Shown: positions 1,823 to 64,000 of the stretch, piece by piece | How positions within the stretch are numbered: the first letter of the stretch is position 1 | How the letters are laid out: each line of letters opens with the position of its first letter | Notes under the pieces: generated by a model | Databases searched by the model: none | What the model was told of the DNA's origin: nothing | Seen by the model: the letters and a program-made list of their open reading frames with translations, nothing else | Assembly (NCBI GenBank): GCA_951406725.2 | Contig: OX597822.1 | Location: forward strand, 74,648,001 to 74,712,000 | Length of the DNA: 64,000 nucleotides | DNA from: Octopus vulgaris | Lineage: Eukaryota | Direction: 5' to 3' | Position numbers and translations under genes: made by a program

Positions 1823-3026
1823 TATATTTGTAATATCTTGCTATCGCAACTCATTATTGCCTCTGTATCTGAAACAGGAGAGAGAGAGAGAGAGAGAGAG
1901 AGCTGGTTAAGATCTGATGGGGTAGGGAGTGAAGGGGCCATACACTTGAGTTACATTGAGGTGTATATAGTGAAGTGGGCCAGGGAATGGAGAGGGTGAG
2001 TGAGTGGTGGTGAGGATGTCTCTGCTTAGTGTTGGCTGTCGGAAGCGAGTACTTGAGACCAGAGTAGAGATTAATGATATTTTTACTTGGATTGCATCAG
2101 TCTCTTGCTATTCTGATTATTGCCAATGTGTGCACAGGGTCTTCAGGTAAATTACAACTGAAGAGTCTGTGCATCCACAGGTGAAACCCAGAACAGTAAG
2201 AGACTGACTCAAACAAGACACACACACATACATGTACGTATGATGGGCTTCTTTTAGTTTTTATCTACTAAATCCACTCTCAAAGCTTTGAATGGCCTGA
2301 GGCTATAGTAGAAAACAACTGCCCAGGTTGCACGCAGTGGGACTGTACCTGGAACCATGTGGTCGGGAAGCAATTTTCTTACCATACAGCCATGCCTATA
2401 TATATACAATAATAATAATAATAATTATGATAAAAAGTAACAACAAAAGAATGAGACCTCGATATTAGAGAAATAGAGGATTATATGTTGTTTGTTCTAA
2501 GTTATATATATATATATGATGATGATCTTGTTCTTGCCAGATCGCTTCTTTTGTCTTTTGATGTGTGACACATGTTCTTTCACATTTCTTACTCATTCCT
2601 GTTTATTTTGTTATTTTTTTTTATTTCTATGTATATGTTGTTTTCTTTTTTTTCGCTTTACTAATTAAAATTAAGGGGAAAATGTGGGATGGACAGAGAG
2701 AGACATGTTAATTCATGTGTGTGTGTATAAGCATGCATATATATATATATATATATATATATGTCATCATCATCATCGTTTAACGTCTGCTTTCCATGCT
2801 AGCATGGGTCGGACGGTTCAACTGAGGTCTGGGAAGCCAGAAGGCTGCACCAGACCCAGTCTGATCTGGCAGTGTTTCTACAGCTGGATGCCCTTCCTAA
2901 CGCCAACCACTCCGTGAGTGTAGTGGGTGCTTTTACGTGCCAGACGAGGCTGACAAACGGCCACGATCGGATAGTGTTTTTTATGTGCCTGGCAATGGCC
3001 ATGATCGGATGGTTCTCTTACGTGTC

Positions 3027-3058
<32 letters not shown>

Positions 3059-3435
3059 TACATACACAAATATATGAAATCACCATCATACATAGACATA
3101 CTTCAGTCTCTGGCCCAGAGGTACATCATCTCTTCTCTTGGTCTTTTCGACTGCTACTATAATGGCCTCTGCTCCTCACAGCTGTCTTGATTTATTTCAC
3201 TTCCATTCAGCAGTTCTCCTCCTACTTATCACTTTTTCTCCCACCACCAATAATTATTTCCCCAGCAAGTCCCGTGCAGTAATAACTTGAACATATAAAG
3301 TGTTCACAATGGCAATAACCAGTGTATTATTTCCTTATCTGATATACACATCTGTCAAATTATTTCCTATTCTATATAAAACAAAAAAAATTTCTTGAGC
3401 CCAAGGACTCACAAAGCCAGTTACATATAAGTGAA

Positions 3436-7310: not shown

Positions 7311-8013
7311 TATCATAACATTTACATCCGATTTGGCAGCGAGGGACAGAAGGAATTCAGAGTTTGATTTAGATGAGATAATCTATGAGAGAGTCTGACA
7401 ATAGATACAGAAAATAAACGCTAAAGTGCACCACACCCTTGGAATATAAAATTCAGCATTATATCTGTGGTTCAACACAAGTATTTAGATATCTAGGAAT
7501 ATATATAAATATAGTGCAATATATATAAAAAAAAGGCAAACAGCCGTCAAAACCAAATATAGGAATGTTACCTCAATGTACGCGAACCACCTTGCATGTT
7601 GTGTATATATATATATGTGTGTGTTTGTGTGTGTACTAGAATGTATGGATATGTGTGCGTGAGAGTATGTACATGTGTTTATGTGTATGTATGTTTGTGT
7701 GTGTATCTGTAAAGAGCTTGGAAGGAAAAACCCCCGAGATGGAGATGGAGTGACATCAGATTGCACCGGATGAATTTAACATTAGCTTTTAGGCCGGCGT
7801 CAAGGGAAGTAATTCTCTTGTAAAAATCTATAAACTATGGGGAACATCTACGCTAAAGTGAATACACACACATCTATCTATCTATCTTCTTTTTTTTGAT
7901 TCTTTTGTTTTTTGTTTTTTGTTTTTTTTTTTTTTTTTTCATCCCCCAAAAGAAAAGCTCTACCTTGTAACTTGTCCCATCTGTGTGCAGCCCTGTATGG
8001 CTAATAAAGAAAC

Positions 8014-8427: not shown

Positions 8428-8932
8428 CCCTACCTCTACCCTGAATTCTTCCCTGTACTTGTTGCCAACCCTTACTGACAGCATCCCTGTATATGGCTTG
8501 CACAGCTCTCACTAACTATTCATCTATCCCTAGTTTCCTCATTGACCACCAGATAAGGGATCGGGGGACTCTGTCAAAGGCTTTCTCCATATCAATGAAA
8601 GCCAGGTACAGGGGTTTATCTTTGGCTAGGTATTTCTCCTGCAGCTGTCTTACCAGAAATATAGCATCAGTGGTGCTTTTCCCTGGCACGAACCCAAACT
8701 GCATCTCATCTAAATTTACTCTCTCCCTAATCAGTAGGGCTATGACCCTCTCTGTGACCTTCATTACCTGATCCAACAGCTTGATACCTCTGTAATTATT
8801 TGCATCTAAAGCATTACCTTTACCTTTGAAGTAGTTGACTATTATACTGCTACACCAGTCATTGGGTATGACTTCTTCGTGTATCACTTGGTTAACTATA
8901 CGGTTGACTAGGCTATAGCCAACACAGCCAGA
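8428..8932 (-). mobile_element. RTE-clade LINE reverse transcriptase fragment (continues at 10207-10238 beyond the mariner)
   Basis: IPNDW..KGKG..NYRGIKLL..QFGFVPGKSTTDAIF..AFIDMEKAFDRV motifs; contains a stop and a frameshift. Confidence 0.92.
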
Positions 8933-8934
8933 TA

Positions 8935-10204
8935 CGAGGGGCGTTCAATAAGTAATGCCCCTGACCCACTTCCTATAGCAGTAGAGCAACGACACTTGGC
9001 ACAGTTATTAGTCTTTTCCTACATAGGAACTACCCAGAGTTATGCATTTCTCCCATCGTTTGATACAGCTCTGGAGACCGTTTTTGTAGAAGACCCCAGC
9101 TTGGTCCTCCAACCACGACGTGACTTCAGAAATCAAGGCTGCATCATCTGGGAAACGCTTTCCTTTCAAAATCAACTTCATGGCTGGGAAGAGGTGAAAA
9201 TCAGAGGGTGCAAGGGGAGGAGTTCATAGCTGCACGCCTGTGGTTCTGATCTGGCGACACGTGAGTTGTGGACCGGAGCGTTGTCCTGCAGGAGGAGGAT
9301 GCCTTTGCTGATCTTGCCCCGTCTCTTGATTTTGATAGCTTCTCTTAATTTCCTCAAAAGTGAAGCATAATAGGCTCCTGTAATTGTGGTACCCTTTGCC
9401 AGGAAATCTGTCATCACTACTCCGTCCTGGTCCCAGAAAACTGTGAGCATAACCTTGTCAGCGGAGGGCTGCACCCTTGCCTTCTTTGGAGGAGGTGAGT
9501 CACAGTGCTTTCACTGCATTGACTGGGCTTTGGTCTATGGATCATAGTGATGGACCCAGGTTTTATCCTGTGTGATCAGTCTTTCGAAAAATTTTGACTC
9601 ATCTTCTTGGCACATCTCCAAATTCATCCTCGAGCACTCAACGCGTTCTTGCTTCTGGAAAGGTGTAAGCAACCTGGAAATCCATCTGGCAGACACCTTT
9701 TGCATATGCAAATGGTCATGAATGATAGTTTCCACAGACCCGGTACTAATCTTGACCTTATGGGCTATTTGGCGAATAGTTATGCGTTGACCTTCCAAAA
9801 TGGCAGCCTCAACTTGACGGACAGACGTCTCATCAACGGCAGAAGGGGGCAACCAGATCTGGGAGCTGTTTCCACAGAGTTCCGACTATGTTTGAATTCA
9901 CAATGCCAGCGTTTTACAAGGTCATATGATGGGGCATCATCACCATAAGTTACTTTCATTTCATCAAAAGTCTCCCGTGGTGTGCGTCCTTTCAAATACA
10001 AAAACCAGGTCACTGCTCGACACTCAACAGGCTCCATTTCACACTTGACTCAGTTCAAACACCTGTAAATCAGAAACCACAATTAGTTCAGAGCTGTAAT
10101 TCGCCACTTAATCTATAGAGGTATAAATAAGTGCACATGCAAAATTCCAGCTAGATCAAACAACTGCAAGTGGGTCAGGGGCATTACTTATTGAACGCCC
10201 CTCG
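8935..10204 (-). mobile_element. Full-length mariner (Tc1/mariner) transposon, transposase frameshifted
   Basis: 37-bp perfect TIRs CGAGGGGCGTTCAATAAGTAATGCCCCTGACCCACTT, TA TSD, 1270 bp; transposase pieces with TQDKTW, VFWD and QDNAP motifs. Confidence 0.96.
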
Positions 10205-15953: not shown

Positions 15954-16029
15954 ATGAAGATCGCATCAGTGTCCATGGTTTCCCTTTTTATTTTTGGTTT
16001 ATTCAATTTCATCTCTCTGACTCACTCAA
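15954..16029 (+). CDS. RPTP exon 1: signal peptide MKIASVSMVSLFIFGLFNFISLTHS
   Basis: ATG with upstream in-frame TGA (15918); basic N-terminus plus hydrophobic core; donor GTAAGA, phase 1. Confidence 0.8.
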
Positions 16030-19352: not shown

Positions 19353-19430
19353 AAAAATGTATTCGTAAAAACGGGGATTGTGTAGCAGCAGACGTACATC
19401 ACTGTAAAACTGCGTGCTCTGTAATTCCAG
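19353..19430 (+). CDS. RPTP exon 2: Cys-rich KCIRKNGDCVAADVHHCKTACSVIP
   Basis: ttttcAG acceptor, CAG|GTAAGT donor, 78 nt phase 1-1, open frame with 4 Cys. Confidence 0.8.
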
Positions 19431-22094: not shown

Positions 22095-22244
22095 AGAACT
22101 GCAACAAAGGAATCGATCGTTTTGGAAAAGGCAAAAAACACCAATGTCATTGCAAACAATTGAGATTTTGCAATGTCACCAACAATGGTCATTGTAATGG
22201 CAAAGGATGTATCTTTGGTTACGAGGGACCAAACTGCCAAAAAC
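22095..22244 (+). CDS. RPTP exon 3: EGF-like repeat (ENCNKGIDRFG...CHC...CIFGYEGPNCQK)
   Basis: MEGF/laminin-EGF Cys pattern; 150 nt phase 1-1; donor GTAAGT. Confidence 0.92.
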
Positions 22245-28037: not shown

Positions 28038-28193
28038 GTTTATACCACGAATTTCTCAAATCTCAAACTGGCATGGTGATATTTGATGTGAATGCCAATA
28101 ACACATGTAGAAATATAACAGGACGGAACCAATCAATACAGTTCAATCACGTCTACAGGATCCACCAAATAAGACTTCATGGCAGAATTTCAG
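28038..28193 (+). CDS. RPTP exon 4: N-half of a divergent F5/8C or F-lectin-like domain (LYHEFLK...RLHGRIS)
   Basis: tctccAG acceptor, CAG|GTGAGT donor, 156 nt phase 1-1, open. Confidence 0.85.
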
Positions 28194-28335
28194 GTGAGTG
28201 TACCCCACCAAAAAAAAAAAAAAACCAAACAGTTTCTTTTGCTTAAATAAATGTTCGTCATCGTCATTGTCATTACTGTCATCACCATAAACCACCATCA
28301 CCATCTTCATCATCATCATCATCATCATCATCATT

Positions 28336-28366
<31 letters not shown>

Positions 28367-28621
28367 CACCACCACCATCATCATTGCTGCCGCTGCCACT
28401 GCCACCACCGCCACCGATGCAAGTACCCCACCAGCACCACTAGCACTAGCACCACCACCACCATCATTGCTGCCACCAATATCATTACCACCACTAACCC
28501 TAACCCTACCACCACCACCACTACCACCACTACTACCACCATCATCGCTGCTGAGTCACCACCACCACCACCACCAACATTATCATTGTCATAATCATCA
28601 TTATCATCATTACTGCTGGTC

Positions 28622-28666
<45 letters not shown>

Positions 28667-28713
28667 ATCTATCTATTCATACACACACACACACATGCAC
28701 AGGTGCGTGCATG

Positions 28714-28753
<40 letters not shown>

Positions 28754-28861
28754 CACAACATGTTTTGTCCTGCATTCTGCAAATATCTGCTGCTCTCCAC
28801 TACACTAATGTCATTTAAGCAATCTATGTTTTTTAATAATCTTTTTTCCTTTTGGTTTCAG

Positions 28862-29017
28862 ATACAATTACAAACATCTTTGGTTCTGATAATCAGACTC
28901 TTGAATGCAAACCTACAAAACGTGTAGCAACAGAACTATTGTGTTCAGGAGACATAACTACAAATAAGATTCAAATTATGGCCAACAATTCCTGCATAGA
29001 CAATATTAAACTTTTTG
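28862..29017 (+). CDS. RPTP exon 5: C-half of the divergent lectin-like domain (DTITNIFG...SCIDNIKLF)
   Basis: tttcAG acceptor, GTAAAT donor, 156 nt phase 1-1, open. Confidence 0.85.
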
Positions 29018-29989: not shown

Positions 29990-30133
29990 GTTGTTCCCCT
30001 GGATGGTTTGGTGAGGAATGTACACAGGAGTGTCATTGTCAAAATGGTTCTGATTGCCATCAGCTGACTGGAGTTTGTCAAAATGGATGTGAGAATGGAA
30101 GGCATGGAGAAAATTGCCAGAATATAAATTATG
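29990..30133 (+). CDS. RPTP exon 6: EGF-like repeat GCSPGWFGEECTQECHCQNGSDCHQLTGVCQNGCENGRHGENCQNINY
   Basis: Classic MEGF10-type CxxGWFGxxC...CHC...TGxC pattern; 144 nt; donor GTAAGT. Confidence 0.95.
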
Positions 30134-30904: not shown

Positions 30905-31150
30905 TAAATGTTGCACTTGGTCGACCAGCATCCCAATCAAGCACAAAGAAAAAACGCTATATTTTTAAAGGTAAGATTTGTCGAGACAGAAAAACATCAA
31001 TGAATGCTTCTTCAGTTGTGGATGGAAACAATTTGATCTTTGAAAGGATGTGCAGTTCCACTGAATGGGAGAAGAATCCCTTTTGGAAGGTTAAACTTGA
31101 CAAGAATTATACAATTTCTCAGCTGAGAATATTTACAGACAACTTATATC
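30905..31150 (+). CDS. RPTP exon 7: F-type lectin (fucolectin) domain N-half (NVALGRPASQSS...VDG...NPFWKVKL...ISQLRIF)
   Basis: NVALGxPAxQSS, DG and PxWxVxL motifs; 246 nt phase 1-1; donor GTGAGT. Confidence 0.92.
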
Positions 31151-32770: not shown

Positions 32771-33853
32771 CCTTCTAAATAATGTTATTACATCCTTCTA
32801 AATAATGTTATTATGCCCTTCTAAATAATGTTATTATGCCCTTCTAAATAATGTTATTACATCCTTCTAAATAATGTTATTATGCCCTTCTAAATAATGT
32901 TATTATGCCCTTCTAAATAATGTTATTACATCCTTCTAAATAATGTTATTATGCCCTTCTAAATAATGTTATTATGCCCTTCTAAATAATGTTATTATGC
33001 CCTTCTAAATAATGTTATTAACCTTCTAAATAATATTATTATGCCCTTCTAAATAATGTTATTACATCCTTCTAAATAATGTTATTACATCCTTCTAAAT
33101 AATGTTATTACATCCTTCTAAATAATGTTATTATGCCCTTCTAAATAATGTTATTATGCCCTTCTAAATAATGTTATTATGCCCTTCTAAATAATGTTAT
33201 TACATCCTTCTAAATAATGTTATTACATCCTTCTAAATAATGTTATTACATCCTTCTAAATAATGTTATTACACCCTTCTAAATAATATTATTATGCTCT
33301 TCGAAATAGTGTTATTACATCCTTCTAGATAATGTTATTACATCCTTCTAGATAATGTTATTTCGTCCTTCTAAATAGTGTTATTACATCCTTCTAAATA
33401 ATGTTATTACATCCTTCTAAATAATGTTATTACATCCTTCTAAATAATGTTATTACACCCTTCTAAATAATATTATTATGCTCTTCAAAATAGTGTTATT
33501 ACATCCTTCTAGATAATGTTATTACATCCTTCTAGATAATGTTATTTCGTCCTTCTAAATAATATTATTATGCTCTTCTAAATAGTGTTATTACATCCTT
33601 CAAGATAATGTTATTATGCCCTTCTAGATAATGTTATTTCGTCCTTCTAAATAATATTATTATGCTCTTCTAAATAGTGTTATTACATCCTTCTAGATAA
33701 TGTTATTATGTCCTTCTAGATAATGTTATTTCGTCCTTCTAAATAATATTATTATGCTCTTCTAAATAGTGTTATTACATCCTTCTAAATAATGTTATTT
33801 TGTCCTTCTAAATAATATTATCATGCTCTTCTAAATAATGTTATTATGCCCTT
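32771..33853. repeat. 23-bp minisatellite (CCTTCTAAATAATGTTATTA TGC/CAT), about 47 units
   Basis: Direct periodicity of 23. Confidence 0.97.
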
Positions 33854-34123: not shown

Positions 34124-34294
34124 AATTGACTGTGTACATTGGTAACAACACGAAGCCATGTTTTCAACGTCCAAAGAATCATAAAGAACTGAGCTTGGAT
34201 ATTATGTGTAGAGAACCACAGATTGGAGATTCTGTGACCATAGCAATCAATGCTGGGTCTGCCATCTTGAGTCTTTGTGAAGTTGAAGTTCTAC
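34124..34294 (+). CDS. RPTP exon 8: F-type lectin C-half ending LSLCEVEVL
   Basis: LxLCEVEV terminal motif; 171 nt phase 1-1; donor GTAAGT. Confidence 0.93.
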
Positions 34295-36429: not shown

Positions 36430-36546
36430 AATGTTTACCAGGGTTTTATGGGAATCTTTGCCATTCAAGATGCAACTGTCAACAAAAAGAATGTGATCAA
36501 ATCACGGGTTTATGCATCTATGATGCATGTCAGGCACAGCTAGCAG
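36430..36546 (+). CDS. RPTP exon 9: EGF-like CLPGFYGNLCHSRCNCQQKECDQITGLC
   Basis: EGF Cys pattern; 117 nt phase 1-1; CAG|GTAAAC donor. Confidence 0.93.
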
Positions 36547-37615: not shown

Positions 37616-37688
37616 AATCATTCTTGCAAGCGGATTCACTTATTGTAGTTTGTGTAATTTTGCTGGTGATTTGTCTGGTCATGATATA
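37616..37688 (+). CDS. RPTP exon 10: transmembrane helix LIVVCVILLVICLVMIY
   Basis: Hydrophobic stretch; ctttcAG acceptor and GTAAGT donor; phase 1-2. Confidence 0.88.
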
Positions 37689-38935: not shown

Positions 38936-39006
38936 TAAGTATTGCAAAATTAAGAAATATACAGCCTGTAAGAAACGACTATCAGAGGTCACTTTAGTAA
39001 GTTCAG
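38936..39006 (+). CDS. RPTP exon 11: basic juxtamembrane segment KYCKIKKYTACKKRLSEVTLVSS
   Basis: Phase 2-1 fits neighbours; positive-inside cluster; CAG|GTAAGA donor. Confidence 0.85.
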
Positions 39007-42125: not shown

Positions 42126-42256
42126 TCCCAGACAGCATCCCCTTTGACGAGTCCGTTTACATTCAGCCAATAGCAACAGAACTGAACAAGCAAAATATTC
42201 TGATTTATGTCCAACAGAAGAAGAGAAAGCTGGAACCTTTTTCTAAAGATTTCTCT
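42126..42256 (+). CDS. RPTP exon 12: juxtamembrane/pre-D1 (VPDSIPFDESVYIQPI...FSKDFS)
   Basis: ttcAG acceptor, GTAAGT donor, phase 1-0, open. Confidence 0.88.
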
Positions 42257-43724: not shown

Positions 43725-43812
43725 GATCTTCCTTGTAATCTTCTTTATCCATGTACTGAAGCAATAAAACCTGAAAATAAAGACAAGAATCGTTTCCAAT
43801 GTTTACTTCCTT
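43725..43812 (+). CDS. RPTP exon 13: PTP D1 with KNRF (KNRY motif variant)
   Basis: DLPCNLLYPCTEAIKPENKDKNRFQCLLP; 88 nt; donor GTGAGT. Confidence 0.93.
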
Positions 43813-44828
43813 GTGAGTTTTCATTTTCTTATATTTCTGTTTTTCCAATTCCGTCTCTAATTTTTCTAAAATTTGATATGTAACTCCCTTACTGCAACCA
43901 CCAAATATATATATGAACCTATGTAGTACACATAAAAACATGGTAAATTTAACTATTTCTCTATAAATTAAAAGACATTGAAGCAAACTGCCTTAACCAG
44001 TTTTCAGTCCTTATTGGGGTCTCATCAGTATTCTTGGCATCACTTGACCTATCACAGGGAAATATTCAGCCAATCTGTTTATACACTGAACAAAGCCAGT
44101 AGCTTCAGGAAACTGGAGCTATTACTTTAAATTCTATAAGAGTTTGATGCTTTATTTAATCTCTGTGGCCTCTAAATCCAGGAGCTCAAAACAGTATGGG
44201 ATATGTCTGTGCAACATACTGAGAAGTCTGCCTAAGAAGATGTTTCTTGGCTGCAGAATGGAATAATACTTTGGAAGAGACTGCAGTCTTGCGTTCTTCA
44301 AGCAAGATGAGGTGCTTCTTTGCTATCTGATGCATTTTATCATCTAATCTTCAACCCTTTTAGTATTATCACCAGAACAGCATAAAAGACCACATACTAT
44401 TTTGAGCACAAGAGTAGTAAAAAAGAAGAAGAAAAAAACAAGATAAAAAAGAAAAAAAATCCTCTAGAAAAATGTATCTCTGCTCTGTACAACAAAGTAC
44501 TGATCCTCACTGGAATGGCTTTTTTACTGGTTTGAATATGTGTCAAGCATAGTCGAACCCATGATCACGAGATTGTGGTTTCAATTCCTGGACCTAGTAG
44601 TGCATTGTGTTCTTGAGTGAAACACTCTATTTCACGTTGATCTGTGATCACTTCAGCCCTTGGCATGTGGCACACAGTACTTCTGTTCAGCAACGTCAAT
44701 TTGATGGTGAGTGTGAGCTAATGTACAGCACATACATTTGACCATTATCGACAAATCATTTGTGCTTGTTCGACAAAAAATTGCAGGACCATCTTTATTG
44801 AACTATGAGAAATTTGTGTCATCATCAT

Positions 44829-44882
<54 letters not shown>

Positions 44883-46118
44883 TGTATATATAAAAACATG
44901 ATTCTTTTTACATAAATCTATATTTGGATAATAGCAAGACAATGAGCTGGCAGAGTCATTAACATGTAGGGGGAAAGCTTTATGCTGCATTTTGTCTGAC
45001 TCTTCACTCTGAGTTCAAATTCCACCAAGGTTGTCTTTGCCTTTGTTGTAGCACTGTACATAATAATATCATTATTATTATTACTATTATTATCGTTATT
45101 ATTGAGTGAGAGAACAGTGCATGCCATCAAAGTGACAATGGGGTAAAATATATGAAGACCAGTATACCGATCATGACTACCTGTCTGATAGGGGTACACC
45201 AGTCACATGCATCCCAACCATATGTGCGTGACATGGTGATCTCATAACAAGATAAATAGCGCATGACGATGCAGATGGGGCCCAGTTAGAATTTTCTTCT
45301 GGTCGAGTAACCCATCTCGCTCAAAGGTCCCTGAATAAGGATTGCTTAAGGATGTTGAACGAAGTACCCATGTTTCCAGAAGTGAATTATTCAAACTCCA
45401 AAGAATCCCTCTCAACACATGACTCTGATGCTCCCCCATTACTTCTGCTTGAGATCAGAGATGCATATATCGTCAGCCACTAAGGGACATGCTCAACTGG
45501 TTACGGTCAAACAACCACCTTTCATCCTTTTGAGGTCGATTAAATAAGTACCAGTTACACACTGGGGTTGATATAATCGACTTAATCTGTTTGTCTGTCC
45601 TTGTTTGTCCCCTCTGTGTGTAGCCCCTTGAGGGCAGTAAAGAAATGGGCCTTGTGGTGGACATGTATACACACAAAAAGTAAAGGTTAAGTTACCTTCT
45701 CATGCCATGCTGGCTCATAAGGGCCAGATCCGAAAGGATGAAATGTAGTTGTTTGACCATAACCAGTTGAGCATATCCCTTAGTGGCTGACGATATGTGC
45801 ATCTTTGATCTCGAGCAGAAGTAGTGGGGGAGCATCAGAGCCATGTGTTGAGAGGGATTCCTTGGGGTTTGAATAATTCACCTCTGGAAATGTGCTAACG
45901 TTTCTGCCAGCTCACCACCTTAAAAAGGCAGAGTCAACCGTGGCAGCATTTCAACTCAGTCAACCTTTTGAGTTAGATAAAATAAGTACCAGCTGAGCAA
46001 TGGGGTCGATGCAATCCAATTATCCCCCCACCTCAAACTTGCTGGCCTTGTGCCAAAATTTGAAATCTGTATAAAATCAAATCTATTCATAACTTTGTAT
46101 TTTTGTTCTTCAATTCAG

Positions 46119-46192
46119 ATGATCACTCTCGAGTTGTGTTACAACCTGATGCAACCTTTTCGTCTGATTACATTAACGCTTCGTACATACAT
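46119..46192 (+). CDS. RPTP exon 14: YDHSRVVL...SDYINASYIH
   Basis: Diagnostic PTP motifs DxSRVxL and DYINAS. Confidence 0.96.
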
Positions 46193-46359
46193 GTAAGTTA
46201 GTTTGGTTTTGCAATTAACTTCATTCTTAATTAACGTTGTTGTCTTGTTTTCTCCTCTCTGTCTGTTATTCTAACCCTTCCATTTAAATTTAAATTTAAA
46301 ATTTGCTGTTTTAATCTTCACAAGTAACTCAATATCTCATTGAAAGTTAATACATATAT

Positions 46360-46392
<33 letters not shown>

Positions 46393-46469
46393 ACACACAC
46401 ATGCATACACATACGGATGTGCCTACATTTACTTAAATCCTCACACTCTATGGAGAATAAGCCATTGAT

Positions 46470-46630
46470 TGCAATTCTCCGCTATTCTCATCTCTGGGTT
46501 GTCTTTTCTGATCCCTGACTTTCCAACTCAACCCCAGTATCCTACCTCCACCTATTTTTTAGGACATCCTCTCTTCTGTCTCCCTTGCAGGTTCCAAGTC
46601 AGGGCCTGATATGTAATGCAGTCTCCTTAA
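46470..46630 (-). mobile_element. RTE LINE C-terminal fragment
   Basis: CITYQALTWNLQGRQKRGCP resembles ALxWNPQGxRxRGRP. Confidence 0.6.
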
Positions 46631-48482
46631 GATTTTGCATTATGGCATCATATGTTTCCCTGAATGAAGGCCTTTCTCTCCTAGGCCTTGTTGGTTTCGA
46701 ATTATCGTCTACACTTCTGTAACTTTGCTTTTCTCTTGGTAAGAGTGGGTCCTATGCAAACCCATTTTTACCTCTTGAAAGACATGGTCCATATAACTCT
46801 CACCTTTGACCTGTCCTTGATGGGAAACTCCATCAGGAGCTTGTGATCTGCTGGAATAGCTTTGAGGGTCATTGAAGCACATAGGCCACCACTGCAACCA
46901 GGTCTGGGCCTTGTGGTGGACGTGTATACACACAAAAGGTAATGGTAAACTTAGCTTCTCATGCCATGCTGATTCATAAGGGCCAGATCCTTAGTTTCAT
47001 GGCATATAAATTTACCACCTGGATGGGACCCTAGTTCATCGCAGGATTACTCATTTTTACCAGCAGAGTAGCCTGTAGCAATGTGAAATGCAGTGGTTTG
47101 CTCAAGAACACAACGCGTCACCCAGTCCGGGAATTGAAACCACAATCTTATGATCATGAGTCCAACACCCTAACCACTAAGCTGCGTGTCTCCACTGTTT
47201 ACGCACAAGTGTGGTAATGTTCAAGTGTGAACTTAACTATGATGTCTAAAACAAATTAAAGAAGAACACAAGCATAGGCACACGTACATACTTATTAAAT
47301 ATCAGCAGGCATCATGCCATAAAAAATGATGGCTACTTGTAGTATTTTATATATAAATATGGTATAAAATAAGGTACGTAATAATCACAGATATCCACAA
47401 ATCACAGATAATCACAAATATATAAAAAGAATAAAAAAATATATATTAGGAGATATATATAAGGATATTGTTTACAATAATATCAAGTGACATAACATGT
47501 GTAAATAGCCATAAAGGTAATACCGTAAGGTAAAAAAAAATATTAATTAATAATTAATGAGGCTACAAGTAGCACTGGCATGTTAATATTGTTGTCGATG
47601 ATGACTAAGGGCATCACATGGGAGAAGAAAATGGATCACAGTGTGTCTGGTTGTGGTTGATCAGTCTGTCTAATGTGTACTTGGAAGGCTCTGTAGCAGA
47701 TCAGGCACTGCTGGGATTGAAAGCAAGGAATTGGCTCTGGAATTGTGCAGTTTGCATTTTTTTCTGTGCTTTGTGGACGTTTATACATGCATACGTGGTA
47801 ATGTTCATGTATGAACTTAACCATGATAACTAAAATACATTAAAGTGTTGGGCACCATGGAGGCAAGGTGGCCAATGCTGGTGGCACATGAAAGGCACCT
47901 TTCAAGTGTTGGGCTTCACTGAGGCAATAGTGAATGACCAAGACCTTTGGTATTATGCCATGCTTGAGAAGAGGACCCGTCAAGCCACGTAAAATCATAG
48001 ACATGGCAGATACTGGTGTCATTCAACAGCACCTGTGCCATTGGCAAAGAAAATCACCCATCACACTCTTGGAGGGGTTGGCATTAGGAAGGGGATCCAG
48101 CTGTAGCAACCATGCTAAATCAGACTGGAGTCTGGTGCAGCCTTCCAGCTTGCCAATCCTGATCAAACTGTCCAACTTATGCCAGCATGGACAACAGACG
48201 TTAAATGATGATGATGATGATGATGATGAAGAACACGTACACAAACACACATACATACTTATGTATCTATACTCGCACACACATACATGTAACCCCTCAT
48301 ACACTTCAAAGAATTAGTTAAGTGTTCTAAGTACCATATCTATGTGAAAGAGTATACTCAACACAATTGCAGAGTGAGTTTTGTGGTAGGATGGGGAAAA
48401 CCTAAGGCCACTTAATATTTAGTAGTTTTATCTCAATCAAGGCTTTCCAGGAATTTTGAGGAAATTGATGTGGTACTTACAG

Positions 48483-48525
<43 letters not shown>

Positions 48526-48863
48526 GTAAGTGTGAACACATCCACACTTGCCAAAAGGCCACTTCCAAGTGCTACACTTGATAAAAAATATATTTATAGA
48601 TAAAACAAATAACAGTGATTTCAAATTTTGGCACAAAGCCACCAATTTGGGGGAAGGTAGCACATTGATTATAGCAATCCCAATCCTCATCCAATACTTG
48701 TCTTATTGACCCAAAAGGGATGAAAGGTGTAGTTGGCCTCAATAGAACTTGACCTAAGAACTTGAAGATGGATGTATTATAACTCTACCACTTATTTTTT
48801 TACTCTGCCTGCTAAAAATTCCACCAACTCGCTGCCTTAATTGAGCAAATAATATTAATAGTA

Positions 48864-48991
48864 CAGTTCTATATTTAAGAGATGAGGAATTATGTACATT
48901 ATTTACATTCGACAGACAAATGGTGTTGTGGTTAAGAGCACGGGCTACTAACCACGAGATTCTGAGTTCGATTCCAAGCAGTGACATGAAC

Positions 48992-49029
<38 letters not shown>

Positions 49030-49167
49030 CATCGAAAAATGTCTTAGGAATGAGAACCCAGGTTCGAAATTTCCCCAAGACACCTGATGAAGGCTGGAGG
49101 GTATATCAGCTGAAACGTGTTAACAACAAACAAGATGAGGACAAATATCTGTAAAATGTAAATAATG
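48864..49167 (+). mobile_element. tRNA(Arg)-derived SINE with 3' hammerhead motif, copy 3
   Basis: Perfect 13-bp TSD AATATTAATAGTA (48851 and 49168); about 57-nt inverted terminal segment at the 5' junction. Confidence 0.88.
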
Positions 49168-49639
49168 AATATTAATAGTATTATAAAATGTTTCCTGTTA
49201 ACATTCCTCTCTCTATATATCTTACCCTAAAAATATACACTGATCTTGAAACTAAATTAATCTTCTATATTGACAACTTTATCAAATAATCATAAGTATT
49301 TGATCCACTTGTAATCTTTTTAGTTATGAAAATATAGTATTTAATTTGGGTTTACAAGAACAAGGTTTTATTCAAACTATTAATAATATATCTGATTATA
49401 TATATATATATATGTATTTGTATATATACTAGTAGAGATAACCGGCATTGCTCAGGATTGAAATGGCATTGTTTCTTTTATTGTTGTACTTGATTCGGTC
49501 ATGTGACTGTGGACATACTGGAGCACCGCCTTTAGTTGAAGAAATCGACTGAGGAAAGAAAACTCTGAATGACCCATCCTTGTTTTCCTTGTATCGTCTA
49601 TCTGGATGTTTTGTGTTCTTGTCCCATTTTGTATATATA

Positions 49640-50906
49640 TCAGGTCATCCCATAAGTTCTGTCCAATTTTACCTTTTTTAAAATTGAATGAAATTTAATA
49701 GTATTTTAGCATGTCTAATTGAATTGAAAAATTATTTTTATGCATTTGTGCACATTTAAACTAATTAAATATTATTTTACAGAATAATAGAATTAAAATT
49801 TCTTTGATTAAAACCCTTTCTAACATGGAAGTAACGAAAGAGCATTTAAGGCACATAATGCTTTATGAGTACAAAAAAGGATACTCTGCAGCCGAAGCGA
49901 CTTGAAACATACACTCAGTTTATGGGGAAAGAATGCTAGAATGAAAGAACTTGCAGAAGATGGTTTGCAAAATTCAGAAGTGAAGATTTCAGCCTTGAAG
50001 ATGAAGATCAAACAGGATGTCCAGTTGAGTTTGATGATAAGCTCCTTGAGGCATTACTTCAAGAAAATCCTGCATTATCAGTTGAAGAATAGGCAATAAA
50101 GCCTAGTTCAAACCATATAACTGTTTATCGTTATCTTCAACAACTTGGAAAGGTTCCTAAACTTGAAAAATGGGTGCCTCATGAATTGTCCGAAAGCAAC
50201 TGCAAATCCCGAGTTGACATCTGCTCTTGTCTCCATTCTCATGAACTTATTTCACCCATTTTGGATTGACTTGTGACTGGTGACGAAAAGTGGATCTTCT
50301 ATTGAAATGTTAAACATCATAAACAGTGGCTTGGTAAAAGGGAAAAAGTGCAGCCACAACTGAGAAGGGAACTTCATGGGAAAAAGGTTCTTTGCTCTAT
50401 CTGGTGTGATTGCAAAGGAGTAATTCACTTTGAATTGTAACCACCTAACGCAACAATCAATGCTGAGGTCTACTGTCAGCAATTAGAACGTTTGACCCAA
50501 GCTTTGAAGAAAAAAGACTTAATCGGAAAGGAGTGATATTTCATCAGGACGTGTGACCCCACACTGCAAAGATCACATCACAGAAGATTGAAGAGCTTGG
50601 TTGGCAAAAAATTCCACACTCACCTTATTCTCCCGACCTTGCTCCTTCAGACTACCATTTGTTTCATAGTTTACAGAATTATTTGGGGGACATAACTTTC
50701 GCAAGGTCAAAACTGATATTTCAGAGGTCTTCACTTTGAAACCAAAAGATTTTTACATTGATGAGATTAAAAAGCTTTTAAATAGATGGAAGGAAGTCAT
50801 AGATAATCAGGGAAAGTACGTTGATGATTAAATTTCAATTAAATATAACATTTGATCACTTGTTTTCTTTATTCAAAATTCAGACAGAACTTATGGGATG
50901 ACCTGA
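49640..50906 (+). mobile_element. Full-length decayed mariner transposon (intron 14)
   Basis: TIRs TCAGGTCATCCCATAAGTTCTGTC, TA TSD; ATG 49825 MEVTKEHLRH, WVPHEL, TGDEKW, YSPDLAPSDYHLF; stops and frameshifts. Confidence 0.95.
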
Positions 50907-50913
50907 TATATAT

Positions 50914-50971
<58 letters not shown>

Positions 50972-51322
50972 GTTATTCCTCTTTGAGATTCAAATTTCAC
51001 ATTACTGCTATCCAGGCTATAAGATGGTAAAGACTCACTTTGGTCATGAATGATTATGGAACTGCACCTAGAAAGTTCCCTATCCATACCCCCAATGTTA
51101 TCTAGGGGAAAGAAAAAAAATACAGCTTGGCACTAGGTTATACTCTTTACAAAAATTTCATTATCAACATTCAAGTTATCAACTTTTCATATATGTTAGC
51201 CTTGATGTATTTAATAATGAAATACTTGCATTTCTAAGACCCTTGAATAGTAACAATTTGATATAAAGGAAATTAATTGTCTTAAAATTAATGAAGTTTT
51301 TTTTATATATCTTTCATTTCAG

Positions 51323-51347
51323 GACAAGAAATATATTTCAACACAAG
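51323..51347 (+). CDS. RPTP exon 15: 25-nt microexon DKKYISTQ
   Basis: YIxTQ motif; tttcAG acceptor and AAG|GTATTT donor; only phase 0-1 bridge I found between exons 14 and 16. Confidence 0.85.
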
Positions 51348-51478
51348 GTATTTTCCATTTTGCTATTTATATTTTCATTTTGCTATTTTATCTCATTTTA
51401 TCTCAATGTATATTTAGTTTTAATTTCATGTTCTTATTTAATCTCATCTGCATTCTGTGTTTTTCTCTCTCTGTTGCT

Positions 51479-51539
<61 letters not shown>

Positions 51540-51846
51540 TAACAGTTATAAATATGTTCAATTGATATTTTTCGGGAAATATTGAAGGAGATATGTTGAT
51601 CTGATGAAGCATCATTACATATTTAAATGGATTTGATTATTCTTGGAAAACTTCTTTTAATTAATGTGGAAACAGGTGTATAAGTGGAAACAGCTGTAAT
51701 TTATGAGATGTGTCATTTGTTTGTATAAAATACATAAATTGAATTAAATTTATAATTGTTCAATTTATTGTTTTGTTTTTCATTTCTTATTTATATTATA
51801 TTATATTATATTATATTATATTATGTTATATTATATTATATTATGT

Positions 51847-51891
<45 letters not shown>

Positions 51892-52015
51892 GTAATGCAA
51901 TACGAGAGTATTGCCTTTCCAGTAAAGAATAGCCCATGAAGCTATACATTAGCGTCATATTATTACGTTTGCTATTTCCAGTAAATATCGGTACTTCGTT
52001 GTGCCATATATTTAC

Positions 52016-52055
<40 letters not shown>

Positions 52056-53338
52056 TTAAGATGATAGCTTCACAGCCACACGGTTTTAGGTTCAGCCCCA
52101 TGACATGGTACCATAGTACAGGGAAACTGAAAAGGATCCAGTTATCTTATATGTGAAGCAGCCATATATATGTATGAGTTTTTGTGTGAGTGTATGTGTG
52201 TGTTCTTGTCTTCACGACTGGTACTAATTGTAAGCAAACATCACTGTCATAAATGCAATGTCATTTGTTTGAAATCTTATGTGAAAGCATGTCCAGCTGT
52301 GGTAATGCTCATGTTTGGACAACTAAGAGAAATATAGCGTTGCTTGGAAACAGGTGAGGGTTAGCAACAAGAAGAGCATCCAACAATAAAAGATTTGCCT
52401 GGCATGGAAAATTGGACATTAACATGATGATGAGGCTCTATCGGCAAAGACCCCCTTCGGTCATGAATGTCCATATGGTTGCACCAAGAAAGTTACCCTC
52501 TGAGGCACAAGTCTGGGCAAGGTTTGTCTATGGAAGACCAGCTATCGCCCATGCATACCAGCCTCCTCTCTCCATGCCACTGACCACTAGTGGCATTGTC
52601 ACAACTCATTTCTACAGCTGAATGAACTGAAACAATGTGGAAAAAAATGTCTTGCTCAAGAATACAGCACACAGCTCGGTCTGGGAATTGAACTCACTAC
52701 CTCATGATTGTGAGCATGACACTCTTACCACTGAGCCATGCTCCTTCATACTGTATGAATATACACGTTGGCATGTAAAAAGCACCATTCAAGCATGATC
52801 ATTACCTGTGTCACCTTACTGGCACCCGTGCTGGTGGCACCTGAAAAAAACATTCGAGCGTGGTCGTTGCTAGTGCCGCTGGACTGGCTCCTATGCAGAT
52901 GGCACATAAGCACCATTTGAGCGTGGCCATTGCCAGTACCGCCTGACAGGCCCTCGTGCTGGTGGTATGTAAAAGCACCCACTACACTCTTGGAGTGGTT
53001 GGCGTTAGGAAGGGCATCCAGCTGTAGAAACTCTGCCAGATCAGATTGGAGCCTGGTGCAGCCATCTGGTTCGCCAGACCTCAGTCAAATCATCCAACCC
53101 ATGCTAGCATGGAAAGCGGACGTTAAACGATGATGATATGTGTATGTCTGTTTATGTATGTATGTATGCGCACGCACACACTCACACACACATATATATG
53201 TATATATAAGTATATGTATATGCATGCATATGTACGTGTTTGCGTATGTATATGTTTAGGTATGTTTTATATAAGGATCTGTATATGCATGTATGTGTAC
53301 AAAAGTATAACATGGTGCTTTTACTTGTAATTTTCTAG

Positions 53339-53427
53339 TGCCAACGAAAAAAACAATGGTTGATTTCTGGAGAATGATATGGCAACAGAACTGTTCTGTA
53401 ATTGTATTACTCACAAACAATGAGCAG
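53339..53427 (+). CDS. RPTP exon 16: VPTKKTMVDFWRMIWQQNCSVIVLLTNNEQ
   Basis: DFWRMIW and IVxLT PTP motifs. Confidence 0.96.
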
Positions 53428-54879
53428 GTAAAAAAAATTGTATTTGGACATTTTATTCTGAGTTCTTGTTGTTGTTGTTGTTGTTAGCAGTGTTGCTAAT
53501 GAGCTTGTTATTGATTTTATTGTTACGGATCTTACTAACTGTTTTTGTTGTGATTGGCAGTATTACTCTTTTACTCTTTTACTAGTTTCAGTCATTTGAC
53601 TGTGGCCATACTGGAGCACTGCCTTTAGTCTAGCAAATCGACCCTGGGACTTATTCTTTGTAAGCCTAGTACTTATTCTATCAGTCTCTTTTGCCAAACT
53701 GCTAAGTTACAGGAACGTAAACACACCACCATCAGTTGTCAAGCGATGAATGGCAGACAGAGACACACAAACATATACACACATACATACATATATATAC
53801 ATATATACGACGGGCTTCTTTCAGTTTCTGTCTACCAAATCCTCTCACAAGGCTTTGGTCGGCCCGAGGCTACAGTAGAAGACACTTGCCCCAGGTGCCA
53901 TGCAGTGGGACTGAACCTGGAACCATGTGGTTCGTAAGCAAGCTACTTACCATACAGCCACTCCTACACCTATGTTAATATTGTTAATATTCTTTTCTGC
54001 TCTAGGCTCAAGGCCCAAAATTTTGGGGGAGTGAGGGCCAGTCAATTAGATCAACCCCAGTACACAACTGTTACTTAATTTATTGACTCCGAAAGGATGA
54101 AAGGCAAAGTCGACCTTGGCAGAATTTCAACTCAGAAAATAAAGACGGATGAAATACTGCTATGCATTTTGCCTGGTGTGCTAACCATTCTGCCAGCTCA
54201 CCACCTGATATTGTTAATATTGTTGCTGTTGTTGTTGATATAGTTGAGTTGGTTGATGTTGCTTTGAATGATGTTACTGATGATGTTGTTTGGTTGAAGG
54301 TCAACTCTGAGCTTTTATCCATGACACCTTGTTGTTAATATGTTTATTGCAGTTCTTGTTGTAGATGTTGTTAATGTTTATTTATCACTTCAGGCAAAAT
54401 ATGTTATTGTCTCAGCTTCAGTCTTAATGAAAAACAAACCCCAAAAACAACTGTATCCTCTACAATGTATATTGAGCACTCCTTTCTCATTCATTCAATA
54501 TGAAGCAACCCATAAACCCATATATATACATATGAGACCCACTTTGGTCATGACACAAACCATGGGATTGCACCTAGGAAGTTACCCTCCCAGACACAAG
54601 TCCGGGCAAGGTTGTTTATGGAAAACCAGCAGTCGTCCATGCATACCAGCCTCCCCATTCCATGCCACCAGTGTTATCCGAGGGAAAGGCAAAAGCCGAT
54701 ACAGCTTGGCATCTGTGACGTCGCAACTCATTTCTACAGCTGAGTTAACTGGAGTAACGTGAAATAAAGTGTCTTGCTCAAGAACACAACACACAGCCTG
54801 GTCCGGGATTTGGGCTCACAACCTCACGATCATAAGCTCGACGCTCTAACCACTGAGCTATGAACAATGAATTGTCAAG

Positions 54880-55085
54880 TCATTTAGAATGCTTCAACAC
54901 GTTCTCCAGCTCCAGCCTTGCTGCATTGGCTGCAAGCCTGGGTATTGCTACCTGTAATGTAGAGAAGAAGAAAATATTCAAATACAGGAATACAACAGGC
55001 TGCTATCAGATTGTGTTGGTCAGCATGGCGACCTCAGATGTTCTTGAAACCCTCACTGTTGACTTTCTTCATAAAATCAGGATAA
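54880..55085 (+). mobile_element. Possible decayed CRE-like non-LTR retrotransposon restriction-like endonuclease fragment
   Basis: TFSSSSLAA..ATCNVEKKKIFKY..YQIVLVSMATSDVL..FLHKI loosely fits AExxKxxKY..YxFxPxAxETxG..FL. Confidence 0.35.
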
Positions 55086-55190
55086 CTATGACCTGTCTGA
55101 GAAATTAATCCTTCAAGGTGGGATGGTTGCTGCAGTGAGTGGCACTGGCCATTTTCTGCAGCAACACCTTTGCACTCATGTCCATGAGGT

Positions 55191-55728
55191 GTGGCTAAAT
55201 GCATTAGGCATGGCTAAATACGTCAGGCATGGCTAAACATGCCAGGTGTGATTAAACACGCCATGTGTAGCTAAACGTGCATGTAAGGCTAAAAATGTCA
55301 TGCAGGGCTGAACACACAGGCAAGGCTAAAGGCCAGGCGTGGCTAAACATGCTGGGCATGGCTAAACACGCAAGGCATGGCTAAACACATCAGGTGTGGC
55401 TAAACATGTCAGGCATAACTAAACATGCCAGGCTTGGCTAAACATACGAGGCGTGGTTAAATACGTCAGGTGTGACTAAACATGCCAGGCATGGCTAAAC
55501 ATGCAGGGTGTGGTTAAATACGCCAGGTGTAGCTAAACATGCTAGGCGTGGCTAAACACACTGCATATAGCTAAAGATGCCAGGTGTGGCTAAATGTGCT
55601 AGGCATGACTAAACATGCAGGGTGTAGTTAAATATGCCAGGTGTGGCTAAACATGCTGGGCGTGGCTAAACTTGCTGGGTGTGGTTAAACACACTGGGTC
55701 TGGCTAAACATGCCAGGTGTGGCTAAGC
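55191..55728. repeat. 19-bp minisatellite (GGCTAAACATGCCAGGTGT-like), about 28 diverged units
   Basis: GGCTAAA recurs at 55193, 55212, 55231 and onward. Confidence 0.93.
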
Positions 55729-55888
55729 ATACCATTTGTTCTGGGGTGTACAATCCATTCTTCCTTCCCCGCCTCTTCTGCTGCTTATTCCCCACTTTTT
55801 TCTTTTTCTTTATTTCCTTCTTTCTTGATAATGTGTTCTTTTTTATACTTTTAATGGTTTTTTTAAATTTCTTTTTAAATCTCTTCAG

Positions 55889-56011
55889 CCGGATTATGTA
55901 CAGCACTTACCTGAAGTGAATGCTACCTTGCATTTTGGATTGATCAGTGTTCAAGGAGTTCTGTTGATGAGCCACAAGTACTATACAGTCTCCAAATATG
56001 TGATATTTGAT
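55889..56011 (+). CDS. RPTP exon 17: PDYVQHLPEVNATLHFGLISV...YTVSKYVIFD
   Basis: Aligns to the KCxxYWP...YGxIxV region (degenerate); phase 0-0, 123 nt; donor GTAAGG. Confidence 0.85.
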
Positions 56012-58468: not shown

Positions 58469-58626
58469 CCCAAATCTAAACCTTTTGTCAGCCGCACAAT
58501 AACACAATACAACTTCACTGCTTGGCCTGAAGGAATGATTCCAGCAAAACCAGAATATATTTTAAACTTTCGCCAGAAAGTCAACTCTTGCAGTGATTTG
58601 AAATATCCAATTGTTGTTCAAAGCAA
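58469..58626 (+). CDS. RPTP exon 18: ...QYNFTAWPEGMIP...YPIVVQS
   Basis: QxxFxxWPx loop and PIVV motif; phase 0-2; donor GTGAGT. Confidence 0.94.
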
Positions 58627-58689
58627 GTGAGTGATGAGTAATTGTTTTTTAACTAGACCATCATCAACATCATCATCATAATCATCATC

Positions 58690-58723
<34 letters not shown>

Positions 58724-58860
58724 ACATCATCATCATCAACATCATCATCATCATCATCATCAACATCATCATCATCAACATCAACATCATCATCATCATC
58801 ATCATCAACATCATCATCATCAACATCAACATCATCATCATCATCATCTTCATCAACATT

Positions 58861-58912
<52 letters not shown>

Positions 58913-58964
58913 CCACCACCACCATACCACCACCACCACCACCACCACCACCACCACCACCACC

Positions 58965-59037
<73 letters not shown>

Positions 59038-59857
59038 ACAACATCATTTAGCATCTGTTTTCCATACTGGCATGGGTTAGTTGGTTTAACTGGAACTGGT
59101 AAGCTGGAGAGCTGCATCAGGTTCCAGTCCTATTTTGGCTTGGTTTCTGTGGCTGGACGCCCTTCCTAATGCCAACCACTCCGTGGGTGTAATGGATGCT
59201 TTTTATGTGTCACTGGCACCGGTGCCATTTACATGAGACTGGTAACGACCACAGCTATGATTCCATTTAGCTTGATGAGTCTTCTCAAGCACAGCAAATC
59301 GTGAAAGGTCTCACTCACTTGACATTGCCTCTGTGAGGCCCGACATCCAAAGATCACGCTACTGACAGCAAAAAATGTTTTTTAACTAGTTCATTTTAAT
59401 AAATCAAATATTTATGTTATATGGTATTTAATATGCCTGTATTTTTCTATGTTGCTCAGATACATGCTACTGGCTGCTCTGAGGTATTTCTATTAGTTCA
59501 TTTAGCAGATACAGTTTAGATTAATACTGTTTTAAGGTATCTTTATTTATGCCCTTGTAATTTAGCAGTTTGGTAAAAACAGATCAAACAGAACCAAACA
59601 GACATTGATTATAGAGTCTTGGCTTGCTGACCTTTGGCTTGCTGTCCTTCATTGCAAAAAATGTCTAGAAATTCTTTAATTTCAATTTGTATGACTTAAA
59701 CAAGTAAAAGATAATATATATAAGATTGCTTTCCCACCACATGGTTCCAGGTTAGGTCCCATTGCATGGTACCTCGGGCAAGTATCTTATACTATAGTCT
59801 CAGGCTGACCAAAACCGTGTCAGTGGATTTGGTTGATGGAAGCTGAAAGAAGGCCTT

Positions 59858-59919
<62 letters not shown>

Positions 59920-60215
59920 GACTAGCATGGAGAATGGACGTTAAACGATGATGATGATGTATATAATATTTACTGCTCTACATTTTAGAGTGTGCTTCTC
60001 CTCTCTGGATTTATGTATTTCTACAAATGGTCCTATATATATATCATCATATATATGTGTGTGTATGTATGTATGTATGTATGTATGTATGCATATATAT
60101 GTATATGCATGTATGTGTCTGTCTATGTATGTTTGTATGTATGTATGTATGTATGTATAATGTATGAGTCAGATACATGCTTGTGTGTGTATGGAGGGGA
60201 GAAAATCAAGTGAAT

Positions 60216-60370
60216 CTCAGGAAACATGGAAGTTTTGAAGGATGCAGTACTCCGACAACAGACAACTGATGCCGGCAGTTTGTTCCATGCTTCAGCAACT
60301 CTCAGCGTGAAAAAATGTTTCCTGAAGTCATGGGAGCTGTGCTGTTTTCTGACTTTGTAAATATGTCCAC
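60216..60370 (-). mobile_element. CR1-clade LINE ORF2 C-terminal fragment
   Basis: GHIYKVRKQHSSHDFRKHFFTLRVAEAWNKLPASVV...FKTSM fits the CR1 FFxxRV..WNxLP tail. Confidence 0.8.
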
Positions 60371-60551
60371 TTTGTAAATATGTCTAGGGCAGATTCGTTT
60401 GACTGAGCTTCTTCAAGGTGGTGCCCCAGCATGGCCACGGTCTAATGACTGAAACAAGAAAAAGATAAACGATAAAAGAAAAGTTTGAATAAATTATTTT
60501 TGTAAATTTTGAATTTGTTTAACAATGAAGAATATTACCATTATATTTCAG

Positions 60552-60687
60552 AACTGGCGCTGGGTCTACTGGGGCATATATATGCCTTGATATTCTTCTG
60601 GAGAAATTGGAACAAAACAAAGCTCTCAACACAGCATATAGCATCAGAAGTTTGTATAATGAAAGATGTCTGATATTCACTAAACGG
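60552..60687 (+). CDS. RPTP exon 19: KTGAGSTGAYICLDILLE...ERCLIFTKR
   Basis: Aligns to SAGxGRTGxxIxxD; 136 nt phase 2-0; donor GTATGT. Confidence 0.93.
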
Positions 60688-63213: not shown

Positions 63214-63363
63214 GCACAACTTGAATTTGTTTACGATGTCATAACCGAGAGTATGATGACTTCTGGTTGTAACATTAACTTCAATGATTTAAAGAGTGAA
63301 ATTGAAAGAATTTCTGTTAAAGACGAAATCACTTGTTGGTCAATTGCAGACAGGCAGTTTATG
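63214..63363 (+). CDS. RPTP exon 20: end of D1 and D1-D2 linker (AQLEFVYDVITE...DRQFM)
   Basis: QYxFxYxxxxE-like motif; 150 nt phase 0-0; donor GTAAGT. Confidence 0.92.
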
Positions 63364-63967: not shown

Positions 63968-64000
63968 GACATCCTTCAGCCAGTCTGCCAGGGCAACAGT
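63968..64000 (+). CDS. RPTP exon 21 (partial): start of D2 region DILQPVCQGNS
   Basis: ttttgcAG acceptor, phase 0, open to window end. Confidence 0.7.

Follow-up and report, generated by a model that had tools for sequence, protein, structure and literature searches.

Octopus vulgaris possesses a tandem-domain receptor protein tyrosine phosphatase (RPTP) that is predicted to be inactive as a phosphatase, since neither its first (D1) nor its second (D2) phosphatase domain contains the catalytic Cys-x5-Arg pair. We propose, by analogy with a known human receptor, that the protein is probably a double-pseudophosphatase receptor that signals as a scaffold or a competitor beside its active paralogs. 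The gene begins in, and extends beyond, a window of 64,000 nucleotides (the whole stretch of DNA analysed, C9:74648001-74712000 of the 2.8-Gb genome); coordinates are those of the window unless another stretch is named.

Gene model and domain layout

A beam search over AG/GT boundaries, run on the window with flanks of 80 kb on its upstream side and 120 kb on its downstream side, gave a gene of 27 exons on the forward strand, running from 15954 to 73070 with the numbering continued beyond the window. The coding sequence of 3147 nt has a single, terminal stop and encodes 1048 amino acids, only 3 of which differ in Octopus sinensis XP_029642125. All 26 introns are GT-AG and exactly 815 codons lie inside the window, in agreement with a preliminary description made from the window alone, which had counted 815 codons with intact splice sites. 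Exon 18, used as a query, matches three proteins, namely P0001 (CAI9728057) and O. sinensis XP_036362485 at 100% and MetaClust record P0003 at 94%. P0001, the public model of this gene, is without exons 1, 2, 6, 7, 15, and 16, so the signal peptide and part of D1 are missing there.

The protein has the layout of a tandem-domain RPTP, with a signal peptide, one transmembrane helix, and two PTP-fold domains. By the gene model and hydropathy, exon 1 (15954..16029) supplies the start codon and a hydrophobic, signal-peptide-like N terminus, followed by a Cys-rich/EGF-like part (exons 2-3, 19353-19430 and 22095-22244) and by a first, shorter beta-sandwich (exons 4-5, 28038..29017), probably a degenerate jelly-roll according to its predicted fold and a tandem match to 3cqo. 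A MEGF-type EGF repeat (exon 6, 29990..30133), an F-type-lectin/galactose-binding-like domain (exons 7-8, 30905-31150 and 34124-34294), and a membrane-proximal EGF repeat (exon 9, 36430..36546) complete the ectodomain. The single transmembrane helix, at about residues 437-456, is encoded by exon 10 (37616..37688) and the juxtamembrane segment by exons 11-12 (38936-39006 and 42126-42256). Exons 13-17 (43725..56011) encode the N-terminal half of D1, with KNRF, DYINAS, TQVP, DFWRMIW, and DYVQHLP; exons 18 and 19 carry its catalytic loops and exon 20 (63214..63363) its end. The linker starts in exon 21 (63968..64000, with 34 nt past the window edge), and D2 is encoded by exons 22-27 (C9:74713214-74721070), in a downstream stretch referred to as L002, where the C terminus reads SHYAEVKK and the stop lies at L002:9070.

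Among other elements of the window, introns of the gene harbor a 23-bp minisatellite of 47 copies (32771-33853) and a 19-bp minisatellite of 28 copies (55206-55734). On visual inspection, the sequence at about 49800-50770 resembles a decayed mariner transposase. A reverse-transcriptase-like fragment lies upstream of the gene on the reverse strand (8516-8944).

Catalytic residues of D1 and D2

Exon 18 (58469..58626) encodes the general-acid loop, which is WPE (58523-58531), WPD being absent, then PIVVQS, in which the catalytic Cys is replaced by a Ser encoded by AGC at 58622-58624. Exon 19 (60552..60687) continues with (K)TGAGSTG, in which Ser occupies the Arg site (60565-60567), and includes the Q-loop, LIFT. 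The two exons join in phase 2 (AGC AA/A ACT) and translate to PIVVQSKTGAGSTG. The D1 P-loop is thus VQSKTGAGSTG, without Cys, without Arg, and without the HCx5R signature: Gln707 stands for His, Ser708 (AGC) for the nucleophilic Cys, and Ser714 (TCT) for Arg. D1 is in register with human RPTP-alpha (6uzt) and with PTP-sigma, and the alignment to the former places QS-KTGAGSTG on HC-SAGVGRTG. Identification as a PTP is not due to chance, since Pfam Y_phosphatase scores 269 bits over two stretches of the protein. The gene model, the spliced contigs discussed below, and the RPTP-alpha alignment all bear out the preliminary reading of both the D1 Cys and the D1 Arg as Ser, and each of the other altered motifs then listed is present in the spliced model: KNRF (residues 544-547), TQVP (584-587), DYVQHLP (617-623), WPE (675-677), and LIFT (749-752). 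By established PTP chemistry, a domain that has lost its nucleophile, phosphate-binding Arg, and general acid is predicted not to catalyse. The effect of a WPE loop and the rule that D1 is the active domain are both documented (PMC2638020).

The preliminary description had left room for activity in D2. The D2 P-loop, split between exon 25 (L002:5404-5552) and exon 26 (L002:7447-7585) as VHNR/CGYFESG, has Asn for Cys and Glu for Arg, and WKD stands at the WPD position. It is covered in three of four sequencing runs, one of which, X2, confirms the exon 25-26 junction. In organism C (runs X9 and X13) the loop reads VHCRGNYFKSG, with Cys kept and Lys for Arg; the O. vulgaris Cys (Cys978) lies two residues further downstream (HNRCG versus HCRGN). 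As Arg is absent from D2 of both species, a move of activity to D2 fails, and both domains of the receptor are without an intact catalytic set, which makes it a double pseudophosphatase in terms of residues. Between the two species the D2 P-loop (L002:5548-5552 and 7447-7471) shows six nonsynonymous and no synonymous changes in 30 nt.

Splicing, editing, and alternative exons

Contigs from all four runs, whose RNA label is a guess, cover exon 18, and none covers the flanking intron. In three of the four, the contig goes on past 58626 with the opening 30 nt of exon 19, and the fourth stops 3 nt short. Since splicing in these contigs falls at the exon edges, they confirm the exon 18-19 junction, on which the reading of D1 had been made to depend. 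Contigs from organisms A and B show no difference from exon 18. Run X9 (organism C) shows 4 base differences and reads QSKAGAGSTG, as does P0003, and the D1 catalytic residues must therefore have been lost before the split from organism C. A 3742-nt contig of the same run carries exons 18 and 25 (record 2132-2290 and 2944-3089) at the offset of the gene model, indicating that no extra exon, or exon of swapped length, lies between them. Furthermore, a search of 264 kb with an active paralog as the query found no second P-loop exon, and the exons restoring HCSAGxGR that had been envisaged as a counterargument were not found in that interval. A-to-I editing is common in cephalopods; at the six codons considered, no A-to-G change can create Cys, Arg, Asp, or Tyr.

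Conservation and selection

We took the ortholog as two halves, P0005 (labelled O. bimaculoides) and P0003 (which matches organism C), a pairing that we infer. Identity to these fragments is higher in the PTP domains (449/477, 94%) than in the ectodomain (388/432, 90%; p 0.019). The intact frame in relatives, together with dead domains that are more conserved than the ectodomain, argues that the gene is not a pseudogene. Indeed, the receptor gene contains no stop, frameshift, or lost splice site, spliced contigs are present, and no nonsense change is seen since the split from organism C, where neutral evolution at the synonymous divergence observed would predict 12-16 (lower 95% limit, 4.4), counted over the ortholog exons other than exon 17.

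Against organism C, a sample of 392 bases contains 16 nonsynonymous changes and 8 synonymous ones, 2 of which are inferred. The dN/dS ratio, which had been put forward as a check on retention, is 0.51 on this sample and 0.69 once those two are dropped; the point estimate is below 1 as retention would have it, but not significantly so (p 0.13). Only after the D2 P-loop is removed, post hoc, does the ratio fall to 0.31 (p 0.03), and the nonsynonymous excess of this loop over the rest (p 0.0005) is likewise post hoc. Judged by these comparisons, the receptor gene is maintained yet evolving fast.

Paralogs and phylogeny

Rarity was assessed in the best 150 of 9149 representatives ranked by similarity to the octopus receptor, a sample that may under-represent other dead receptors. 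The first P-loop was readable in 141 of these 150, and by alignment its Cys is missing from four, of which two are records of the octopus receptor gene, one is P0014 of O. bimaculoides, and one has a gap. P0127 was set aside because a gap at the P-loop makes its Cys site unreadable, and P0053, from a crinoid, was rejected because only its Arg is missing. Truly Cys-less among the 141 are thus the octopus receptor gene (two records) and one octopus paralog, which, within this sample, upholds the earlier statement that receptors with an inactive D1 are rare. Shorter proteins were also searched; of 24 matches, the best at 50% identity, none is another ortholog of the dead gene, a weak indication of absence.

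No family neighbor of the dead receptor gene was found in the 264 kb searched on C9. P0014 (XP_014769029) maps to C14:74.79-74.86 Mb (74793823-74860686, minus strand), where a paralog with 16 cytoplasmic exons and an open frame is identical to P0014 at 519 of 572 positions and shares 29% overall identity with the C9 gene; the exon that corresponds to C9 exon 16 measures 98 nt there, against 89 nt in C9. Its D1 contains VVQSSNGVGRSG (QSSNGVGRSG, with Arg kept) and WPE, its D2 reads VHGSDGMKNSG, and it is Cys-less in both. EGF exons upstream on the same strand suggest that this paralog is probably also a receptor. Before its PTP domains lies a very long, low-complexity juxtamembrane exon with KAESKGRPE-type repeats (open frame of 1020 aa). 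In O. bimaculoides, the C14-type dead gene appears to be split into XP_014769031 (ectodomain) and XP_014769029.

Eight loci, seven on C14 adjoining the dead paralog and one on C30, carry the active signature (HCSAGVGRTG and WPD). Both dead genes have the codons CAA AGC and GAA where 8/8 other family loci have CAT TGC and GAT. A single TT-to-AA change would explain His-to-Gln and Cys-to-Ser together, and three identical base changes in both dead genes favor a single origin. One old loss followed by duplication is thus the likely source of the two genes, as far as their codons tell, and the trees do not settle the order.

For these trees, 23 sequences were picked from a 141-sequence FastTree and analysed with IQ-TREE on D1, on D2, and on both domains. 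A phylogeny against molluscan paralogs had been advised as a further check, and part of it is clear: the cephalopod clade is recovered at 100/100, with no Biomphalaria sequence identified among the taxa, and within it an octopus trio of the C9 dead gene, P0014, and the active P0159 at 96/97. The order of the dead genes within the trio is conflicting, since D1 pairs the two dead genes (83/88) and D2 pairs P0014 with P0159, the C14 pair (81/92); a reduced set gave 62/11. IQ-TREE, run on D2 or on the two domains together, did not reproduce the FastTree pairing of the dead genes as sisters (0.90). Dead paralogs were found in Octopus records only, and two cuttlefish relatives (CAE1324406 and CAE1275163) have intact D1 motifs.

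In the C14 interval 73.26-74.76 Mb, near-identical active-signature paralogs are clustered, at least seven in number and in either orientation. Their WPD exons are of two kinds, but the exons that follow are nearly the same, which suggests recent duplication or gene conversion. A further candidate at C14 73.47-73.52 Mb was discarded, having D2 exons only. On C28 (27.93-27.98 Mb, minus strand), a tandem PTP gene whose D1 is unusual (WEM in place of WPD, and VHC then SGGART) is possibly another weak or dead receptor; it was not counted in the family, as it looked like a member of a different one.

Predicted fold and ectodomain

An AlphaFold2 model built from a 56-sequence alignment has a pLDDT of 83, and Foldseek ranks tandem RPTP structures first (best 6uzt, E 7e-42, target TM 0.80); the tandem PTP fold is therefore predicted to be kept. 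In the ectodomain model (pLDDT 72.5), the F-type lectins 3cqo and 1k12 match first (Z 15.8-15.9; for the fold match, Z 15.8 with 143 residues at an rmsd of 3.8), CBM32 modules score equally, and Pfam PF22633 reaches only 22.7 bits, under its cut-off of 27.8. The domain of exons 7-8 keeps the VDGN cation motif (h2DGx). The fucose-binding His and Arg residues of F-type lectins have been defined (PMC5712786, section 8), and the corresponding motif, His...RxDx4(R/K), is absent here: His is replaced by Ser and the first Arg by Asp, and the next loop is 5 residues shorter. These differences make fucose binding by this domain unlikely. Because the residues vary across the family, their loss is not specific to the dead members.

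Discussion

The combination of EGF-like repeats and F-type-lectin folds in the ectodomain matches the architecture of molluscan MEGF/GBD-RPTPs, exemplified by Biomphalaria sudanica SudRes1, which have EGF repeats, a galactose-binding-like domain, one transmembrane helix, and tandem PTP domains, and whose paralogs are clustered, at the SudRes1 resistance locus of the snail (PMC12297450). That study treats D1 of these receptors as catalytically active, and the word "inactive" is absent from its main text. The octopus receptor differs in its missing catalytic residues and in having no family neighbor within the C9 interval searched. Its C14 and C30 paralogs (e.g., CAI9733298) belong to the same cephalopod clade and have a matching exon layout where examined, but in their D1, as in that of the cuttlefish proteins, HCSAGVGR[T/S]G and WPD are retained. 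XP_014769029 and its C14 ortholog are Cys-less in both domains like the C9 gene, but keep the D1 Arg and have the long juxtamembrane exon. With the F-type lectins AAA (1k12) and MsaFBP32 (3cqo), the octopus domain has the fold and VDGN in common, but not the fucose residues (PMC5712786).

Receptor pseudophosphatases are known as a principle (PMC7320164, PMC8269279), and human PTPRU has been described as unique among RPTPs for its two pseudophosphatase domains (PMC7320164). Like the octopus receptor, PTPRU has a WPE loop, and its pTyr loop is also altered (PMC7320164). The preliminary comparison with PTPRU, made for an inactive D1, calls for a qualification: PTPRU keeps the redox-sensitive active-site Cys and the HCX5R motif (PMC7320164, PMC8269279), and Ser708 takes the place of that Cys in octopus D1. 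Since PTPRU belongs to the R2B family and the octopus receptor has an EGF/lectin-fold ectodomain and has lost both Cys and Arg from D1, the two arose independently. In the open-access literature we found no molluscan or cephalopod RPTP described as lacking the Cys; as read from the genes, what appears to be new is a lectin-fold RPTP of an invertebrate whose D1 has neither Cys nor Arg, in a genome that also contains a dead paralog and active ones.

PTPRU binds and shields substrates of its active paralogs, with which it is proposed to compete (bioRxiv 10.1101/805119 = PMC7320164), and PTPRK-D2 binds Afadin without need of phosphorylation. By extension, after a presumed single inactivation in an octopod ancestor and a duplication into two dead genes, the D1 and D2 surfaces of the octopus receptor may bind partners independently of phosphorylation, as for PTPRU and PTPRK-D2, and these partners would be shielded from active family members or contested with them. 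Such competition requires co-expression with the paralogs. In the preliminary description, the gene was a "retained decoy/scaffold"; retention now stands on a spliced transcript, an intact frame, and conserved dead domains, and the scaffold role itself is drawn by analogy.

Four other readings were weighed against this one. D1 could be a phosphotyrosine reader, its Cys-to-Ser change making it a natural substrate-trapping mutant that binds phosphorylated proteins. Such mutants do trap phosphotyrosine, as seen in STEP C472S with bound pY (PMC2638020), the PTP fold is predicted to be intact, and Phe for Tyr in KNRF is conservative, but the C9 protein has lost the Q-loop Gln as well as the phosphate-binding Arg, and its +1 residue is Lys. 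Because Arg is lost as well, we consider a trapping role improbable for this gene; the C14 paralog, which keeps Arg in QSSNGVGRSG, would suit it better.

Equally improbable in our estimation is that signalling is outsourced, the dead domains being a stable spacer and the tyrosine of the C-terminal SHYAEV recruiting an SH2 protein such as SHP2, so that the receptor would be a paired-receptor counterpart of the active paralogs. SHYAEV (Tyr1043) matches the S-x-Y-x-x-V consensus of ITIMs, P0003 shares SHYAEVKK, and in snails the family has been linked to parasite resistance. However, a C-terminal tyrosine occurs in all six relatives compared, including five whose D1 motifs are active, a motif this short can appear by chance, and we found no octopus immune data in the open-access literature.

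A gene under relaxed constraint or in decay, whether retained for the ectodomain alone or turning into a pseudogene, would agree with a sampled dN/dS of 0.5-0.7 that is not significantly under 1, with the purely nonsynonymous changes of the D2 P-loop, and with a long tip branch (1.16). It is hard to reconcile with cytoplasmic domains that are more conserved than the ectodomain, with zero stop or splice losses where many are expected, or with full frames in two dead paralogs as deeply diverged as those of C9 and C14, and we hold it to be quite improbable. Residual activity, whether through D2, through RNA editing or alternative splicing, or through other chemistry at Ser708 or the displaced Cys978, could draw on the WKD of D2, on a Cys only two residues downstream, and on the D2 Cys of organism C, but is very improbable given that Arg is missing at the required position in both species, that editing cannot restore the residues, that no alternative exon was found in the 264 kb searched, and that organisms A and B match exon 18 exactly.

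The scaffold or competitor reading can be widened, though the result is speculative and rather doubtful as a whole: octopods would have a two-member, Cys-less pseudophosphatase subfamily, born of one TT-to-AA change, whose members are non-catalytic counterparts of the expanded active lectin-fold RPTP cluster, recruit SH2 proteins via the C-terminal tyrosine, and tune immune or cell-recognition signalling. With active, Cys-less but Arg-containing, and Cys-less and Arg-less members, a single genome offers a natural series in which the roles of RPTP domains can be tested without catalysis. The public "protein-tyrosine-phosphatase" labels on the dead proteins are likely wrong, in a family linked to parasite resistance in snails. 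Of note, the same type of ectodomain is found at C12:57.95-58.13 Mb, C20:71.15, C3:20.87, and C25:21.1-21.2 Mb; as no PF00102 match is listed near these loci, they may encode PTP-less receptors or secreted forms.
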